From contig OZ245003.1 of NCBI GenBank assembly GCA_965223425.1, positions 1,472,001 through 1,536,000 on the forward strand: a DNA stretch of 64,000 bases. The letters run 5' to 3'. The stretch is from Nitrosopumilus sp. Its GTDB lineage: Archaea > Thermoproteota > Nitrososphaeria > Nitrososphaerales > Nitrosopumilaceae. The notes under the pieces were generated by a model. It was not told the DNA's origin, did not search any database, and saw nothing but the letters and a program-made list of their open reading frames with translations. The position numbers and the translations under genes were made by a program. This document shows positions 27,121 through 59,189 of this stretch, one piece after another (position 1 is the stretch's first letter; every line of letters starts with the position of its first letter).

Positions 27121-28494
27121 TCAATATTCCACCTCACTTCTTGCAAGTAGGTTATAGGTTAGATCGACATATCCTTGTGGATCAACTTCTTTTGCAAATC
27201 CCTTATCGATGTTTATGAGATAAATGGAATGTAGATGGGCATTTAGAATGTCCTCATACCGGATTGGCGGATTTTTATAGTAACGATCGCAAAGATTCTT
27301 GATTTTATCTACATCTTCTTTCTTCCTTGCATTTGGGGGCAACAAGAAAATTTTTGGTATTGGCAAGATTCCAGTAACAGGACTGGCTAATGAAAACTTT
27401 GAACAGTGCTTGCTATATCTTGAAACTTTACTCATTATTCTGGCAGCATAATAATCAACTGTGTCCATTGCATTCTCAGGAGGAGTAAACCCAGTCTCTA
27501 TTTCAACAATGGTATTCCCATCACCTTTTTTTGCAAAGATATCACATACTAAAATATCTGAAAGCGTCTGCTAAACGGGCCGCAGGCAAGACAGCTTGCA
27601 GCAGACCTGGATGCGGGGCCGGAGTCATGCGGCTTTGAGAGCAGCTTGTGGGATTCCAACCTCGTAAGGCTGCACATCAAGAGAAAGTTCGGCGTGCAGT
27701 ACAGCAAGACAGGTGTGCTGCAGCTGATCAAGGAGGTGGGCTTTTCGTGGAGCAAGGCGCGTCCAAAAAACCCAAAATCCACCTCAAAAAAAGAGCAAAA
27801 AGAGTTTCAGGGACGGGCAAAAAAACCCGTTGCAGAAAAGTCGGCGCAGGGATACGCCGTACCGGCCGGCGATGCATCCTCGATTCAAAGGGCATCAAAC
27901 AGGCCCGGCTACGGGTGGAGAAGGCGCGGCAAGCGCGCCACATCTCCCCCTCTGTTTTGCCACGCAAGAGAAGATACATTTAGAGTCCTGTCAGCAAGCG
28001 CATTTTACTTTATGTTTTATGAAAAGCCAGACAGCGACGGCTTTTGCAGCTTTTTGGAACGGGTTCACAAAAGATTCGGCAAGGTGCTGCTGTCTGTAGA
28101 CAATGCGTCATATCACAAATCCAAAAAGGCAAGGGAGTTTCTGGAAAGATACAATGACGGGATAGTTCTGGAGTACCTGCTGCCGTACACGCCGGAGCTT
28201 AATCCCATTGAGATGCAGTGGAGGGTAATAAAACGGGTACTGTCTGCAAAAGTGTTTGGCACGCTAGATGAGATGGAGCAGTCAGTACGCACGCTGTTTG
28301 CCAGAAAGGAGATCCTGCCTGTGAAAATGTTCAATTATTTAATGTGCTAACTATGTTGTCCTTCTGATCCTAGGCGGACTGACTTTTCGTACAATTGAGA
28401 CATAATTTAGTTTGGGCACATCATTTTCTTTGAGATTTTTGGACAGTTTCTCAGTCATCTCATAGACGTCGTTACGGAATTTTTCCAAATCCAT
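27121..28494 (-). pseudogene. host gene (PD-(D/E)XK-like motif) disrupted by IS630
   Basis: N-terminus MDLEKFRNDVYEM at 28494-28400; C-terminal part CDIFAKKGDG..VEIETG at 27570-27121. Confidence 0.65.
27573..28353 (+). mobile_element. 5'-truncated IS630 element
   Basis: DNASYH and PELNPIE motifs; right end ATGTGCTAACTA as in the other copies. Confidence 0.9.
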
Positions 28495-28631
28495 GATTCA
28501 AAACTATGTAATCTTATGTGCCCCGATCAAGGAAATCAGATGATAAGAGTGGTTCTGGTTCAGAAAACAGAGCCGGTACTGCAAGGATCAGAAATGCAAA
28601 CAAACACACAACCCCAGATCCGAGGATATGC

Positions 28632-29672
28632 ATGTCAGCTGTCTTTGTCGGCCTGGATGTCCACAAGAAGACCATCCAGATGTCAGTCATGGATGAAAAC
28701 GGCGAGGAACTGCTCAACAAAGAGATAGCAAACACAGCCGAAGACATCAGGTACAACATAGGCTGTTTGCACAAGGACTCGAAGCTTGTGATGGAATCCT
28801 CGTCTGTCTGGAAGGCGCCGTTCTTTCAGATAAGAGACGAGCTAAGCATGGACGTGTCGCTGTCAAACCCGTACACCACCAAGCTCATAGCAGAGTCCAA
28901 AAAGAAGACTGACAAGGTGGATGCCAGAATTCTGGCAGACATGCACAGGGGAGGATACATAGTATCGTGCCACGTACCCACGTTGCAGAACATGAACAAC
29001 AGGGACCTGGTGAATTACCGGCACAACCTGGTACGCCACAGGACAGGACTGAAGAACTCCATACACGGCATACTGCTGCAGAGATCGATTCGGCCTGACG
29101 GCAAGCCGTTTTGCGGGCCATGGATTGCGCAGGTTCGAAAGATAAGCGACTATAGGATAGACTCGTACCTGGACACGATAAACAGCATAAACGACAAGAT
29201 ACTCCAGTCAGATGCAAGGGTGCGCCAGGCAGCAAAGGAGAACGAGGATGCAACTCTGCTGCAGACCGTTCCGGGTGTCGGGGCATACTCTGCACTGGTC
29301 ATTGCATGTACAATAGACGGCATAGGAAGGTTCGTCAACTCGCACAAGCTGTGCTCTTATGTCGGCGTTGTTCCGTCTGTGAGATCCTCCGGCGAGTCCG
29401 TGCACTATGGACACATAACGCACCATGGAAGCAGCATATGCAGGTGGGTTCTGACAGAGTGCGTCTTGTCGCATGTAAGGTATGCGCCAGAGTCTGACAT
29501 TTCGATATTCTACAAGAGGCTTGCAAAGAGGAGGGGCAAGGGACGTGCATCAGTGGCTGCTGCCTCAAAGCTGCTGCGAGTCATTTACCGCATGCTCAAG
29601 GAGAGAAGGGCGTTTGTTACAAATTACAGTCAGGATGCCAATTGCGATGAACTCGTTGAGGGACAGACCTAG
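28632..29672 (+). CDS. IS110-family DEDD recombinase
   Basis: GLDVHK, MES, KTDKVDA, VPGVG and RSSG motifs; likely start MSAVFVG. Confidence 0.95.
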   Translation: MSAVFVGLDVHKKTIQMSVMDENGEELLNKEIANTAEDIRYNIGCLHKDSKLVMESSSVWKAPFFQIRDELSMDVSLSNPYTTKLIAESKKKTDKVDARILADMHRGGYIVSCHVPTLQNMNNRDLVNYRHNLVRHRTGLKNSIHGILLQRSIRPDGKPFCGPWIAQVRKISDYRIDSYLDTINSINDKILQSDARVRQAAKENEDATLLQTVPGVGAYSALVIACTIDGIGRFVNSHKLCSYVGVVPSVRSSGESVHYGHITHHGSSICRWVLTECVLSHVRYAPESDISIFYKRLAKRRGKGRASVAAASKLLRVIYRMLKERRAFVTNYSQDANCDELVEGQT

Positions 29673-29880
29673 TAGTCTGTATGCCTCGCCTTGTAATTGC
29701 ATTATACCCTGATAAAAGAATGGAGAATGATACTGAGGGATTGCCTCTGTGATTGCCTCGGATGGATAACTGTTCGCCTCTTTGTTGTCTTGGGCCTTTG
29801 CGGTCTGGAAATAATCCTAGCTTGTGCCGTACCTGTCAGGATGAAAAATGTTGGGAATTCTTATAAGGATGGCACATGGA
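29630..29880 (+). ncRNA. candidate bridge/seek RNA of the IS1111-type element
   Basis: TGAACTCGT (29648-29656) and TTGTA (29691-29695) match the target; ATGGATAA (29762-29769) matches the donor junction; stem-loops present; boundaries approximate. Confidence 0.6.
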
Positions 29881-29956
29881 TACGAGTTCACGTCCCCTTA
29901 CAAATAGGCGCGAATTTTACGGAATTTGTGTTGTTTACGCAGAGTAGGTGAACTCA

Positions 29957-31330
29957 TATCCATGTGCCATCCTTATAAGAATTCCCAACATTTTTCATCC
30001 TGACAGGTACGGCACAAGCTAGGATTATTTCCAGACCGCAAAGGCCCAAGACAACAAAGAGGCGAACAGTTATCCATCCGAGGCAATCACAGAGGCAATC
30101 CCTCAGTATCATTCTCCATTCTTTTATCAGGGTATAATGCAATTACAAGGCGAGGCATACAGACTACTAGGTCTGTCCCTCAACGAGTTCATCGCAATTG
30201 GCATCCTGACTGTAATTTGTAACAAACGCCCTTCTCTCCTTGAGCATGCGGTAAATGACTCGCAGCAGCTTTGAGGCAGCAGCCACTGATGCACGTCCCT
30301 TGCCCCTCCTCTTTGCAAGCCTCTTGTAGAATATCGAAATGTCAGACTCTGGCGCATACCTTACATGCGACAAGACGCACTCTGTCAGAACCCACCTGCA
30401 TATGCTGCTTCCATGGTGCGTTATGTGTCCATAGTGCACGGACTCGCCGGAGGATCTCACAGACGGAACAACGCCGACATAAGAGCACAGCTTGTGCGAG
30501 TTGACGAACCTTCCTATGCCGTCTATTGTACATGCAATGACCAGTGCAGAGTATGCCCCGACACCCGGAACGGTCTGCAGCAGAGTTGCATCCTCGTTCT
30601 CCTTTGCTGCCTGGCGCACCCTTGCATCTGACTGGAGTATCTTGTCGTTTATGCTGTTTATCGTGTCCAGGTACGAGTCTATCCTATAGTCGCTTATCTT
30701 TCGAACCTGCGCAATCCATGGCCCGCAAAACGGCTTGCCGTCAGGCCGAATCGATCTCTGCAGCAGTATGCCGTGTATGGAGTTCTTCAGTCCTGTCCTG
30801 TGGCGTACCAGGTTGTGCCGGTAATTCACCAGGTCCCTGTTGTTCATGTTCTGCAACGTGGGTACGTGGCACGATACTATGTATCCTCCCCTGTGCATGT
30901 CTGCCAGAATTCTGGCATCCACCTTGTCAGTCTTCTTTTTGGACTCTGCTATGAGCTTGGTGGTGTACGGGTTTGACAGCGACACGTCCATGCTTAGCTC
31001 GTCTCTTATCTGAAAGAACGGCGCCTTCCAGACAGACGAGGATTCCATCACAAGCTTCGAGTCCTTGTGCAAACAGCCTATGTTGTACCTGATGTCTTCG
31101 GCTGTGTTTGCTATCTCTTTGTTGAGCAGTTCCTCGCCGTTTTCATCCATGACTGACATCTGGATGGTCTTCTTGTGGACATCCAGGCCGACAAAGACAG
31201 CTGACATGCATATCCTCGGATCTGGGGTTGTGTGTTTGTTTGCATTTCTGATCCTTGCAGTACCGGCTCTGTTTTCTGAACCAGAACCACTCTTATCATC
31301 TGATTTCCTTGATCGGGGCACATAAGATTA
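29957..31330 (-). mobile_element. IS110-family (IS1111-type) element, copy 2
   Basis: Inverted 1374-bp copy of 28509-29882 encoding an identical protein. Confidence 0.88.
30167..31207 (-). CDS. IS110-family DEDD recombinase
   Basis: Identical translation to copy 1. Confidence 0.95.
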   Translation of the reverse strand: MSAVFVGLDVHKKTIQMSVMDENGEELLNKEIANTAEDIRYNIGCLHKDSKLVMESSSVWKAPFFQIRDELSMDVSLSNPYTTKLIAESKKKTDKVDARILADMHRGGYIVSCHVPTLQNMNNRDLVNYRHNLVRHRTGLKNSIHGILLQRSIRPDGKPFCGPWIAQVRKISDYRIDSYLDTINSINDKILQSDARVRQAAKENEDATLLQTVPGVGAYSALVIACTIDGIGRFVNSHKLCSYVGVVPSVRSSGESVHYGHITHHGSSICRWVLTECVLSHVRYAPESDISIFYKRLAKRRGKGRASVAAASKLLRVIYRMLKERRAFVTNYSQDANCDELVEGQT

Positions 31331-31478
31331 CAAAACTATCTAGTTTTTCGGGGTTTAAGAGTTAGTTGTGATTCAACATGTTTCGTCTCAAGGCACAAAT
31401 CGAGTAAATTACTCAAATAAAATTGAAAAATGAGTAATTTTTCTTCATACTTTGTCTTAACAACAAAAATCAGAATGA

Positions 31479-40080: not shown

Positions 40081-42342
40081 GTATGAATTCACCTACCCTG
40101 CCTAATCAAAAAATTTGATCATCTGATCCATATATTGCCTGTTTGCTACCATTTTCATGGGGTCAAGGCCGACAAACAGGGAACTTGAAGAGACCCTGCG
40201 TTCTGCCACAGACAGGATAGCAACACTCCAGTCAAAATTTAATGTACTGCTAGATAAAAACAAACAACAAGAAAGGGCCATCGAGTATTACCAGCGCATG
40301 TTATCATACTATCAAAATCCCAACACCCCGCCGTCTGCTGACTCGCTTGAATGGAAGAGGCAAAAGAGGGAGCGTGCACAGCAAAGAAAAGACGGGGAGG
40401 GCAACGACAACAATAGCGGCAAGCCCGGCGGCAGGACAGGACGCGCCGGAGTATCGCGGCATCACAGCCCGGAGAGAAGACAGCGGCACGACTTTGAGCG
40501 CAGGCAGTCAGGCAGAAGCATCACAAAAGTTCTTCCAAGATGCAGGTGCGGCAAGGCCATGGTTTTGGGCAACCCCCGCGTACGGGACATCATAGAGATG
40601 GAGGTCACCGCACACGAGACCCGCCACCGCATAGAGACTGCTGTCTGCGCGTCATGCGGCCATACAGAGGAGGCGCCAAACGGCGACCTGCCAAGACTCG
40701 GATCGTACGGCAAGAACGCGGTGGGGTTCGTCTCTGAGCTGCGCGCCGCCCGCGTCCCGCTCAAGATCATACCGCGCATCATACACTCTGTTGCCGGAGT
40801 CAGCATGTCTGCTTCCACTGCAAACAGCATCATGGCACGCACCGCAGACGCGCTGGAAGGCCAGGCATCTGAGATAGCAAAGAACGTGGCCAAATCAGAA
40901 AGCGCCGGGTTTGATGAGACCATGCATCGCGACTGCGGCATCAAAAAGCAGACAAACGTGGCCCAGTCAGGAAACAACATCTCAATACAGATCAGCTCAA
41001 GCAGGGCCACCCTGATGCTTGATTCGATGAACTATGACGGCATAGCGGTAACTGTAGTATGCACATAAAAAAACTGAATCATTTTGACAATTATTTTTGG
41101 CCAAAAGATCCAAGACCGGCCATACCGCACACACTGCATGTACAAACAAAAAAAGAGACAGGTTGCAAGGGGGGCAAAATTTCTGCCAAACACCAGCGTT
41201 GCAGACCTCAAAAGGGCATACAAAAAAGAGACCGATCCCAGAAGGCGCGACAGGCTGCTTGCGTACATGCAGCGCAAGGACGGCGTGCCGCTATACAGGA
41301 TTGGAAGGATGCTGGGAAGGCCCAAATCCACCATATCTGCATGGCTCAACCGCGCACAGGACGAGGGAATGCGCGCAAGATTCGAGCGCAGCGGCAGGGG
41401 ACGAAAGCACCTGATAGGCGGGCCGCAGGCAAGACAGCTTGCAGCAGACCTGGATGCGGGGCCAGAATCATGCGGCTTTGAGAGCAGCCTGTGGGATTCC
41501 AACCTCGCAAGGCTGCACATCAAGCGAAAGTTCGGCGTGCAGTACAGCAAGACAGGCGCGCTGCAACTGATCAAGGAGATGGGCTTTTCGTGGAGCAAGG
41601 CGCGTCCAAAAAACCCAAGATCAGCCTCAAAAAGAAAGCAAAAAGAGTTTCAGGAGCGGGCAAAAAAACTCGTTGCAGAAAAGTCGGCGCAGGGATACAC
41701 CGTACTGGCCGGCGATGCATCCTCGATTCAAAAGGCATCAAACAGGCCCGGCTACGGGTGGAGAAGGCGCGGCAAGCGCGCCACATCCCCCTCTGTTTTG
41801 TCACGCGAAAGAAGATACATTTGGAGTCCTGTCAGCAAGCGCGTTTTACTTTATGTTTTATGAAAAGCCAGACAGCGACAGCTTTTGCAGCTTTTTGGAA
41901 CGGGTTCACAAAAGATTCGGCAGGGTGCTGCTGTTTGTAGACAATGCGTCATATCACAAATCCAAAAAGGCAAGGGAGTTTCTGGAAAGATACAACGGCG
42001 AGACAGTTCTGGAATGCCTGCTGCCGTACACGCCGGAGCTTAATCCCATTGAGATGCAGTGGAGGGTGATAAAACGGGTACTGTCTGCAAAGGTGTTTGG
42101 CACGCTAGATGAGATGGAGCAGTCAGTACGCAAGCTGTTTGCCAGAAAGGAGATCCTGCCTGTGAAAATGTTCAATTATTTAATATGCTAACTACGGAAG
42201 ATAAGCGGGCAGACCAAGGGCGGCAGCAAGTCCATGAAGCGCCTGGGAGATTTTGTAAGCTGCGTCCTGACGTGGCAGAATCACGGCAAGAGCGTGGCGC
42301 AAGAGGTTGCCAGACTGATATAAGGGGCAGGTGAATTCATAC
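40081..42342 (+). mobile_element. IS66-family element disrupted by IS630 (sibling of 57633-59158)
   Basis: TIRs GTATGAATTCAC/GTGAATTCATAC; tnpC from 40157 truncated; no TSD. Confidence 0.9.
41055..42194 (+). mobile_element. IS630 element with frameshifted transposase
   Basis: Ends TAGTATGCAC/ATGCTAACTA; 2-bp deletion near 41820 relative to the intact copy. Confidence 0.9.
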
Positions 42343-57603: not shown

Positions 57604-57632
57604 TGATTAAAAAAGATATAGTAGCAATCATC

Positions 57633-59158
57633 GTATGAATTCACCTACCCTGCCTAATCAAAAAATTTGATCATCTGATCCATATATTGCCTGTTTGCTA
57701 CCATTTTCATGGGGTCAAGGCCGACAAACAGGGAACTTGAAGAGACCCTGCGTTCTGCTACAGACAGGATAGCAACACTCCAGTCAAAATTTAATGTACT
57801 GCTAGATAAAAACAAACAACAAGAAAGGGCCATCGAGTATTACCAGCGCATGTTATCATACTATCAAAATCCCAACACCCCGCCGTCTGCTGACTCGCTT
57901 GAATGGAAGAGGCAAAAGAGGGAGCGTGCACAGCAAAGAAAAGACGGGGAGGGCAACGACAACAACAACGGCAAGCCCGGCGGCAGGACAGGGCACGCCG
58001 GAGTATCGCGGCATCACAGCCCACAGAGAAGACAGCGGCACGACTTTGAGCGCAGACAATCAGGCAGAAGCACCAAAAGAATCCTTCCAAGATGCAGGTG
58101 CGGCAAGGCCATGGTTTTGGGCGACCCCCGCGTACGGGACATCATCGAGATGGAGGTCACCGCACACGAGACCCGCCACCGCATAGAGACTGCAGTCTGC
58201 ACGTCGTGCGGCCATACAGAGGAGGCGCCAAACGGCGACCTGCCAAGACTCGGATCGTACGGCAAGAAGATGGCAGGGTTTGTCTCTGAGCTGCGCGCCG
58301 CCCGCGTCCCGCTCAAGGTCATACCGCGCATCATACACTCTGTTGCCAGAGTCAGCATGTCTGCCTCCACTGCAAACAGCATCATGGCACGCACCGCAGA
58401 CGCGCTGGAAGGCCAGGCATCTGAGATAGCAAAGAACGTGGCCAAATCAGAAAGCGCCGGGTTTGATGAGACCATGCATCGCGACTGCGGCACCAAAAAG
58501 CAGACGAACGTGGCCCAGTCCGGGAAAAACATCTCGATACAGATCAGCCCAAGCAGGGCCACCCTGATGCTTGATTCGATGGACTATGACGGCATAGCGG
58601 TAACTGACGCATACAGGGGGTACGACAGGTTCAATGCAGAGGACAGACACCAGCTGTGCTGGTCGCACGACATACGCAAGGCAAAAACCCTGGCAGAAAA
58701 ATACGATCCCCTCTTGGATGACGGCAGGCGGAAAAAACGGCGGCAGTACCTCGAGGACCTGCGGTTTGTGTTCAAGGAGGCAAAACACGTCGCACGGCTG
58801 GGGGCGCACTCGCGGAGGCAGCGGCACGTCATGGAGGACACCCTGGCAGACGTTCTTGACCGGTACTGCGGCACGGATGATGCAGACCTGCACAAGCTTG
58901 TCATGATGATGTACCGGCACCTTCCGCACCTGTTTACGTTTGTCCAGTACGCCGGGGTGGAGCCGACTAACAACGCATCAGAGAGGGCGCTGCGCTATAT
59001 GGTGGTGTTCCGGAAGATAAGCGGGCAGACCAAGGGCGGCAGCAAGTCCATGAAGCGCCTAGGAGATTTTGTAAGCTGCGTCCTGACGTGGCAGAATCAC
59101 GGCAAGAGCGTGGCGCAAGAGGTTGCCAGACTGATATAAGGGGCAGGTGAACTCATAC
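57633..59158 (+). mobile_element. intact IS66-family element (single TnpC, 57709-59139)
   Basis: TIRs GTATGAATTCAC/GTGAACTCATAC; 8-bp TSD CAATCATC; DET, QLCWSH and PTNNASER motifs. Confidence 0.95.
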
Positions 59159-59189
59159 CAATCATCAATCATCGGAACTCGCTTTGAGT

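Follow-up and report, generated by a model that had tools for sequence, protein, structure and literature searches.

Introduction

IS4321 and IS5075, two insertion sequences (IS) of the IS1111 type, reportedly target the end-repeats of Tn21. IS5075 also inserts at a look-alike sequence in ureC (PMC8269217). Within the IS1111 group, ISEc11, ISKpn4/ISPst6 and ISPa11 have been described as guided by a seekRNA (Siddiquee et al. 2024, PMC11187229), and IS621 and ISCro4 are known as bridge recombinase systems (Durrant et al. 2024, PMC11208160; Hiraizumi et al. 2024, PMC11208158). Here we analyse a 64,000-nucleotide stretch of a Nitrosopumilus sp. genome (assembly GCA_965223425.1, contig OZ245003.1, positions 1,472,001 to 1,536,000; hereafter the window), in which positions 28500-31339 hold a miniature inverted-repeat transposable element (MITE) with IS66-type ends that carries a copy of an IS1111-group IS in each of its two terminal repeats. 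Taken together, the results make it highly probable that insertion of the MITE was followed by two separate insertions of the IS into the end-repeats, and that these were targeted by a predicted bridge/seekRNA specified by the 3′ region of the IS.

As with IS4321/IS5075, the IS homes to an end-repeat of another transposable element, where both its position and its orientation are fixed. The IS5075 insertion in ureC has a parallel as well: a copy of the window IS at C1:2373641 (C1 is the contig that contains the window) is likewise an occasional look-alike hit. The locus differs from IS4321/IS5075 in that its host is an archaeon, in that the target is an IS66-type repeat and the MITE bearing it, and in that insertion takes place at the extreme tip of the repeat, between base 1 and bases 2-3. 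As a consequence of this last difference, the left flank is not conserved, and there is almost nothing with which a left guide could pair.

Like the seekRNA-guided IS1111 members, the element has a long non-coding region downstream of its gene, extensions of 7 and 3 nt next to subterminal repeats, a predicted guide complementary to the top strand that lies 5′ of one complementary to the bottom strand (PMC11187229), and relatives that appear to have been retargeted naturally by changes in the guides only. The targets given for those members (a short linear site, attC ends and repetitive extragenic palindromic sequences) are matched on both sides, whereas here the match comprises the right side and G-TA only. 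Also unlike those members, the predicted 5′ guide is located within the last part of the coding sequence, and the system presented here is a prediction from sequence. With IS621 and ISCro4 it shares an alignable DEDD plus serine catalytic set and, in the predicted RNA, a target loop and a donor loop, each with one strand per DNA strand and with a shared core dinucleotide (PMC11208158). IS621 and ISCro4 are IS110-group elements, with a left-end RNA, guides in the opposite order and a CT core. The window IS has its predicted RNA at the right end and a TA core, and sequence similarity to the window recombinase is low (E ~1e-9 to 1e-10). A literature search, judged mostly from titles and listings and with the supplementary target tables of PMC11187229 and PMC11208160 outside its reach, found no report of an IS110/IS1111 element that targets IS66 ends, or of one in Nitrosopumilaceae.

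Results

Two copies of one IS occupy both ends of a single MITE

The genome that carries the window is 2.64 Mb in size, consists of two contigs and has 41% G+C; the window corresponds to C1:1472001-1536000. A repeat search identified two inverted-repeat arms of 1392 nt each (28507-29898 and 29941-31332) that are 100% complementary and are separated by a 42-nt spacer. The left boundary of the locus is an 8-bp target-site duplication, AAAACTAT (28500-28507), derived from insertion of the MITE and present as a direct copy at the right boundary (31332-31339). Next to it, on the forward strand, is the outer tip of the MITE C-end repeat (28508-28510), comprising a G (28508) and a TA core (28509-28510), which is severed from the remaining repeat by IS copy A (28511-29880, forward strand), an IS1111-group element of the IS110 family that spans 1370 bp between two TA cores. 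An empty MITE shows the uninterrupted sequence G-TA-CGAGTTCAC at its C-end repeat. The MITE body with one TA core per side, TA-CGAGTTCAC...GTGAACTCA-TA, follows at 29881-29958 (forward strand) and is identical to four other genomic copies. IS copy B (29959-31328) is inverted and is 100% identical to copy A across the 1370 bp, position x of copy A corresponding to position 59839-x; on the reverse strand it has its own recombinase gene (30167-31207) and predicted bridge RNA (~30064-30210). The outer tip of the MITE T-end repeat (31329-31331, forward strand), a TA (31329-31330) and a C (31331) that reads G on the opposite strand, completes the structure. Each IS copy therefore has TA at both sides and separates the G at base 1 of a MITE terminal repeat from the TA at bases 2-3. 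Insertion replaces only the outermost repeat base beside the MITE body, where the G becomes the A of the IS end, and the body still starts with TA-YGAGTTCAC.

The original prediction interpreted the 2.8-kb palindrome as two IS copies in one small element, both at repeat positions 2-3 and in the same relative orientation, and recovered an 80-bp element with an 8-bp target-site duplication upon removal of the IS. The sequence parse agrees with this exactly, base by base: an empty copy of the 80-bp element exists at C1:2012427-2012506 with a duplication of its own, and the right ends of both IS copies face the MITE body. A perfect palindrome on the kilobase scale with matching outer 8-bp direct repeats cannot have arisen by chance.

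Long perfect palindromes are hard to assemble and often unstable, and no public contig spans this one. In addition, the two window copies are 100% identical, versus 99.3-99.6% for the other full-length IS copies of the genome. These observations would fit an assembly artefact in which the true locus, like three others in the genome, has a MITE with a single IS copy that was mirrored, for instance from fold-back long reads. A fold-back, however, would mirror flank and centre, whereas the outer flanks are different unique sequences that have only the direct 8-bp duplication in common, and the central MITE body is asymmetric (C-end versus T-end) and 100% identical to other copies. Public sequence was checked in four runs, as short Logan contigs and with a bridging criterion of 31 nt. 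Contigs of run X1 (records 1 and 8) pass from each outer flank into the IS left end, as does record 16 of run X3 for the right flank, with overlaps of 24-26 nt. Many of the loose contig ends in these runs belong to other genomic IS copies, and the support of the outer-junction contigs for the two-copy arrangement is suggestive only. A double hit also recurs in a single-contig genome, G305, with a different IS and a different MITE (see below). We consider an artefact very improbable.

The perfect identity of the two copies would also be expected if one insertion had been followed by an inverted duplication, through template switching or recombination at the MITE hairpin, and the MITE repeats could promote strand switching of this kind. 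Such a scenario does not sit well with the presence of a TA core of its own around each copy, at the same repeat position, nor with the single hits found at either end type elsewhere in the genome. Moreover, template switching would have yielded a product with mirror symmetry around its middle, whereas the MITE body is intact and asymmetric. The chance that an inverted duplication produced the locus is accordingly put as very small, and two separate insertions is the reading that we retain.

Immediately left of the locus, an open reading frame (ORF) at 27646-28350 has DDE_3 and HTH_33 domains and represents a fragment of an IS630/Tc1-like transposase, which indicates that the MITE landed within an IS-rich stretch.

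The target is the terminal repeat of an IS66-derived MITE

The MITE is 80 bp long and is present in five genomic copies with 98.75-100% identity. Its terminal repeats, GTACGAGTTCAC and GTATGAGTTCAC, match at 11 of 12 positions. The empty copy at C1:2012427-2012506 is flanked by the 8-bp duplication AATTTATT. When the inserted IS sequence is disregarded, an 8-bp duplication is likewise seen at the four occupied MITEs, a different one at each (TCATCTAA, CTTGATAT, CCTACAAA and, at the window MITE, AAAACTAT). The element is short and non-coding, has parent-like terminal repeats and duplications, and occurs as dispersed copies, as is typical of MITEs. In an Rfam 15 scan of positions 28300-30000 no credible family was found for the MITE or for the predicted RNA; sub-threshold microRNA-type matches in this region were put down to the palindrome.

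A full-length element of the IS66 family is located elsewhere in the window, at 57633-59158 (forward strand). It is 1526 bp long, both of its ends are empty, and it is flanked by the 8-bp duplication CAATCATC at 57625-57632 and 59159-59166. Its single ORF (57709-59139) encodes 476 aa and matches Pfam DDE_Tnp_IS66 (PF03050) with 1.1e-27 over residues 198-441. According to ISfinder descriptions, members of the IS66 family generate an 8-bp target-site duplication and have terminal repeats that start with GTA(A). The ends of the window element, GTATGAATTCACCTACCCTGCC and GTATGAGTTCACCTGCCCC, are of the GTATGA... type, the fourth base being T or C and not A. The canonical accessory genes tnpA/tnpB are absent from it. 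IS66 subgroups with a single ORF are known, and the element is therefore placed in such a subgroup and not outside the family.

In a comparison by eye, the left end of the IS66-family element and the MITE T-end share 19 of 22 positions. The near-identity of the MITE repeats to those of this DDE_Tnp_IS66 element, together with the 8-bp duplications at all five MITE loci, justifies the label IS66-derived MITE. It also upholds two predictions, that the MITE ends resemble those of the element at 57633-59158 and that the tip of an IS66 end-repeat is the target. The element at 57633-59158 is likely the parent or the mobiliser of the MITE. A second copy of it (96-99% identical), interrupted or internally deleted, lies in the window at 40081-41054 and 42195-42342, and its ends are free of the IS1111-type element.

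The inserted element has IS1111-group anatomy

The recombinase gene of copy A (28632-29672, forward strand) encodes 346 aa starting from MSAVFVGLDVHKK, with the Pfam domains DEDD_Tnp_IS110 (PF01548; 1.6e-23) and Transposase_20 (PF02371; 1.7e-17). Of the solved bridge recombinases, ISCro4 (9t56; 2.7e-10) and IS621 (8wt6; 4.4e-09) were matched by sequence. Residues D9, E55, D94, D97 and S253-G254 align with conserved positions of the ISCro4 transposase (9t56), S253-G254 with its SG. The PF02371 domain of the IS1111 group is described as carrying a G(L)-P----S/T-G motif (PMC11187229), and the C-terminal motif of the window recombinase reads GVVPSVRSSG. The gene is intact only in the two window copies; in the other genomic copies it is frameshifted, interrupted or truncated.

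Subterminal inverted repeats, asymmetric extensions and a longer downstream non-coding region set the IS1111 group apart from IS110 proper (PMC11187229; PMC11208160). The subterminal inverted repeat of the window IS, ATGTGCC/GGCACAT, is perfect over 7 bp, which is the short end of the published range of 7-17 bp, usually 11-13 (PMC11208160; PMC11187229), and it covaries among relatives (for example ATGTGAA/TTCACAT). The terminal extensions are TAATCTT on the left (7 nt, one TA core counted in) and GGA on the right (3 nt), as compared to 7 (or 6) nt and 3 nt in the IS1111 group (PMC11187229). The non-coding region comprises 208 nt downstream of the recombinase gene (29673-29880) versus 121 nt upstream (28511-28631). 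As in the IS1111 group, there is one target, one orientation and no duplication beyond the core, with only TA repeated. The IS1111-type identity given in the original prediction is in agreement with this combination of a DEDD recombinase of the IS110 family and IS1111-group anatomy.

A TATA-box-like sequence, CTTATAAGG (29860-29868, forward strand), is located 13-21 nt from the IS right end and faces outward; a TATA-like consensus, TTTATAAAG, is found at the corresponding place in most of 28 relatives. A junction promoter has been reported for IS1111/IS110-type elements (PMC11187229). The TATA-like box is a candidate archaeal counterpart of this promoter; if it has this role, transcription from it would extend outward into the invaded element as well.

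At the left end, a motif (C/T)AGAT(G/A)(G/A)T is conserved at 28538-28546 of the window and ~30-42 nt inside the left end of relatives. It holds the complement of the element's own left tip (ACCAT/ATGGT, ACTAT/ATAG, ATCAT/ATGAT) and repeats the 5′ strand of loop 2 of the predicted RNA. Runs of at least 5 between motif and tip were found in 13 of 25 cognate pairs versus 33 of 454 pairs with different tips.

Insertion is site- and orientation-specific throughout the genome

A BLAST search of the IS against the genome returned 24 segments. At the left ends, G precedes the IS in 18 of 18 cases and GTA in 17 of 18, and positions farther left are at background composition. Eight right ends were found, four of which adjoin a MITE T-end and one a MITE C-end, so that five in all lie at TAYGAGTTCAC. 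Of the other three, one lies at a one-mismatch look-alike, TACGTGTTCA, another is the end of a 90%-diverged copy whose flank is unrelated, and the third is truncated. Six of the seven untruncated right junctions read TA-Y-G-(A/T)-GTTCA, and all informative right ends point into the interior of the repeat. The insertion is thus site- and orientation-specific, as predicted. The more stringent expectation that the flanks of every copy in the genome read G-TA-YGAGTTCAC holds in part: most copies fit, including the five right ends at a MITE, but one full copy occupies a look-alike that is not recognisably of the IS66 type.

Half of the MITE ends are occupied (5/10). Four of the five MITEs were hit, that of the window twice, and the separate 8-bp duplication at each of the five MITE loci indicates that these hits are independent.

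The exceptional full copy, at C1:2373641-2375012, is inserted at G-TA-CGTGTTCA, without a recognisable IS66 end. This site is made up of 8 bp of unrelated DNA and the first bases of an unrelated 1.25-kb IS whose repeats start with CAGCTAAGCG. A full copy at such a site indicates that what is recognised is a sequence and not an IS66 element as such. The look-alike at C1:2375013 was also considered as the truncated end of a second IS66-like family (GTACGTGTTCACC...); this was rejected because the repeat is not continued beyond the neighbouring 1.25-kb IS. Likewise, the 90%-diverged copy (C1:2105160-2105911) was considered as a case of retargeting within the genome; its guide has two changes, but its flank is unpaired in register, and we regard it as uninformative. 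The ~1.25-kb neighbour (C1:2375021-2376268) is itself a multi-copy element, with terminal repeats starting with CAGCTAAGCG and copies that are 92-95% identical in at least seven other places.

The region C1:300000-370000 contains a cluster of decayed fragments of the IS and its relatives (80-95% identical), with GTA still before every one; several of them end ~100 nt in, after the run GCAAACAAACACAC. Two copies of the IS, at C1:1201624-1202767 and 1804994-1806123, are each interrupted by a ~1.1-kb insert, at IS positions 64/65 and ~522-525.

A predicted bridge/seekRNA contains a guide matching the repeat tip

The predicted bridge/seekRNA (29629-29775, forward strand) consists of two stem-internal loop-hairpin modules, and the final 14 codons of the recombinase gene lie within it. 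Its layout is common to the relatives: an outer stem and a short inner stem, an internal loop and a GAGG...CCTC hairpin cap are followed by a second stem, internal loop and hairpin. The structure alignment was based on 23 of 24 listed sequences (L031 was omitted because its second module looked divergent; the 24 did not include the same-genome paralogue). The RNAalifold consensus of these relatives has 25 pairs, with 95.3% of cells paired and 18 pairs changed on both sides. None of 500 shuffles was as good, slid partners were paired in 36-45%, and the single-sequence fold agrees with the consensus in module 1.

The 5′ strand of loop 1, TGAACTCGT (29648-29656, forward strand), is complementary to repeat positions 3-11 (A-CGAGTTCA) and is the putative right-target guide. 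It is the longest match of the IS to either target strand, and the sole match of at least 9 nt in the IS. A guide G lies opposite the repeat Y and would form G:C or G:T, which explains why ends of either type, C or T, are used. The position of the left-target guide is taken by the 3′ strand of loop 1, CCTTGTAA (29689-29696, forward strand), and insertion sites match this strand only at G-TA(-A). When nucleotides 1-5 of the left guide were compared with the 18 left flanks, matches were found at 4, 1, 5, 7 and 18 sites, respectively, so that only the G is above background; no pairing of the left guide CCTTG with these 18 flanks was detected beyond the G. A match restricted to G-TA fits a target at the extreme repeat tip because the left flank is whatever DNA the MITE had landed in. 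The 3′ strand of loop 2, ATGGATAA (29762-29769, forward strand), the putative donor guide, reads as the terminal 5 nt of the IS right end joined through the TA core to the first IS nucleotide, and would correspond to the circle junction of the IS. In 19 of 22 parsed loci (the window IS, L017 and L031 not being among them) the donor strand includes the final 3 nt of the right end of the element itself, together with TA, and it follows the end classes GGA, AGA, AGG and GGG.

Guides and flanks were compared for 31 loci (30 plus the same-genome paralogue; L003 was dropped because it is the same place as L001), of which 25 were parsed and L006, L019, L020, L022, L024 and L026 were not. Watson-Crick runs of at least 7 between the 5′ guide and the right flank were found in 9 of 25 cognate versus 5 of 600 non-cognate combinations. 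For the 3′ guide and the left flank plus core, runs of at least 6 were found in 10 of 21 cognate versus 6 of 504 non-cognate combinations. The non-cognate hits are partly relatives with a common target. Together, these results point to target choice by the guide of the predicted bridge/seekRNA. Sequence, structure and covariation fit a guide RNA, and we infer its production and its binding by the recombinase.

A different view would be that the recombinase protein itself recognises the site, or that the subterminal repeats pair with a look-alike target, the 3′ structure having a role in mRNA stability or termination. GTG is indeed common to the target (GTGAAC...) and the subterminal repeat (ATGTGCC), and production and binding of the RNA are predictions from sequence. 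Neither form of recognition would lead one to expect loop strands that change with the flanks while the stems stay constant, which is observed even among same-genome paralogues with different targets. In addition, the solved relatives IS621 and ISCro4 are bridge-RNA recombinases (PMC11208158), and IS1111 members were found experimentally to need RNA from the same non-coding region (PMC11187229). Recognition without a guide RNA seems most unlikely, and guide-directed targeting is the reading that we follow below.

Relatives with other guides are inserted at other targets

Homologues of the IS were found in 66 of 401 genomes of the class, a tally that includes one match in an unpublished genome (G283), used only there. 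A paralogue with 50% identity is present in the window genome, and the two strands of its loop 1 read TTTATGCGT and GCAATTAA. All three copies of this paralogue (C1:323375-324352, 2046356-2047333 and 2067597-2068574; target TA-YGCATAAAGTCTA) are located at TCAAT-TA-YGCATAAAG. The paralogue would represent a natural reprogramming of the guide at the same RNA position. Two relatives in two other genomes, L012 and L015, lie at nearly the same target (TGCATAAACTCTAG and TGCATAAGGTCTAT).

The closest relative (73% identity, L001 in G036) is found in a metagenome-assembled genome of a Nitrosopumilaceae archaeon. That record and the window genome belong to the same GTDB family, consistent with the predicted archaeal origin of the window. 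This relative is inserted at G-TA-CTTGTTCAC (CTTGTTCACGTGG), which is the end-repeat of a full IS66-family element: a DDE_Tnp_IS66 ORF (3.4e-23) starts 75 nt inward, and the other repeat is intact. In the same-genus genome G305, all five copies of a relative with 54% identity are located at G-TA-A(T/C)AGG(T/A)TAGCCCC. This target is the tip of a ~114-bp MITE family with 42 matches and 8-bp duplications, and one of these MITEs was hit at both ends, which generated a second palindromic pair.

Flanking ORFs were scanned for the 10 largest from 17 loci. One was of the IS66 type, two were other DDE types, one was an inverted sister IS, and six were unrelated or without a family. In the right flanks of L005 and L014, ORFs with DDE_Tnp_1 and DDE_Tnp_4 domains extend right to the site of insertion; further clade members may accordingly also lie in or beside unrelated transposons.

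Tandem duplications are present at the right ends of three relatives, L001 (~2780-2880, ~51 nt), L032 (3749-4080, 166 nt) and L027 (15 nt). The L032 repeat unit starts at G-TA-A inside the DNA of the left-target guide, and the L001 unit at a near-match to its own guide. These duplications look like recombination of an element into itself.

Discussion

The results suggest the following history and mechanism. An 80-bp MITE derived from a resident IS66-family element would first have inserted, which created the AAAACTAT duplication. Two later and separate insertions of one IS1111-group element, at the same position in each MITE end-repeat, would then have followed. The exchange would take place between G1 and T2-A3, with TA as the core, and since both right ends came to point toward the MITE body, a 2.8-kb palindrome would result. 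The 9-nt guide in loop 1 of the RNA would pair with the top strand at repeat positions 3-11, the second strand fitting G-TA only, and loop 2 would carry the joined-end sequence of the IS. The recombinase would bind the expressed RNA and the IS would travel as a circle, the TATA-like box at the right end driving transcription across the circle junction. One mobile element thus appears to home to the tips of another. Loss of mobility of the MITE after insertion is plausible but not a given, because the MITE body still starts with TA-YGAGTTCAC and only the outermost G is replaced.

Several observations weigh against this interpretation. The palindromic arrangement rests on the assembly, as the IS part of the public contigs at the two outer junctions is only 24 and 26 nt long, which is below the 31-nt criterion. 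The exact sequence GTAYGAGTTCA is unoccupied at three IS66 right ends and at four non-repeat sites, from which it follows that occupancy is not predicted by the sequence of the site alone. The preference for T-ends (4/5 occupied, versus 1/5 C-ends) is unaccounted for, and it is puzzling because the guide should pair with the C-end at least equally well. The single-sequence fold of the RNA is no more stable than shuffles (z = -0.75), so that the structural support comes from the alignment only. Finally, in 13 of 25 relatives the right-flank run is shorter than 7 even when G:U pairs are allowed, so that pairing is weak or absent in about half of them; most of these relatives are represented by one locus each, and some may be decayed copies.

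Homing of an IS1111 element to the end-repeat of another transposon, and the seekRNA/bridge-RNA mechanism, were known already. What is new is that the host is an archaeon, that the target is an IS66-type end or its MITE, that insertion is at the repeat tip and guide pairing essentially one-sided, and that the G-TA anchor recurs in sister species together with other right guides. The finding therefore extends a known homing behaviour to archaea, to the IS66 family and to its MITEs. It also provides a clean natural series of guides and targets, in which one RNA scaffold is combined with different guides, both in a pair of paralogues from a single genome and in relatives from sister species, and it explains a perfect palindrome on the kilobase scale that might otherwise be dismissed as a misassembly. 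The IS apparently inserts with pairing over ~9 nt of the right flank, in addition to G-TA, and with the left flank unpaired, which, if confirmed, would be unlike the two-sided recognition of IS621 and ISEc11.

More broadly, the locus gives a view of mobile elements that prey on each other in the IS-rich genomes of Nitrosopumilaceae. We put forward, as a tentative idea that may well prove wrong, that the bridge-RNA IS lineage of this family consists of specialised tip parasites, with a fixed G-TA anchor, a right guide reprogrammed to whichever IS66-type repeat or MITE is abundant, and one-sided recognition. If this were the case, the outward TATA-like box could alter transcription into the invaded element at each insertion, and, if repeats that have been hit are dead, the lineage would be a natural brake on IS66-type elements.

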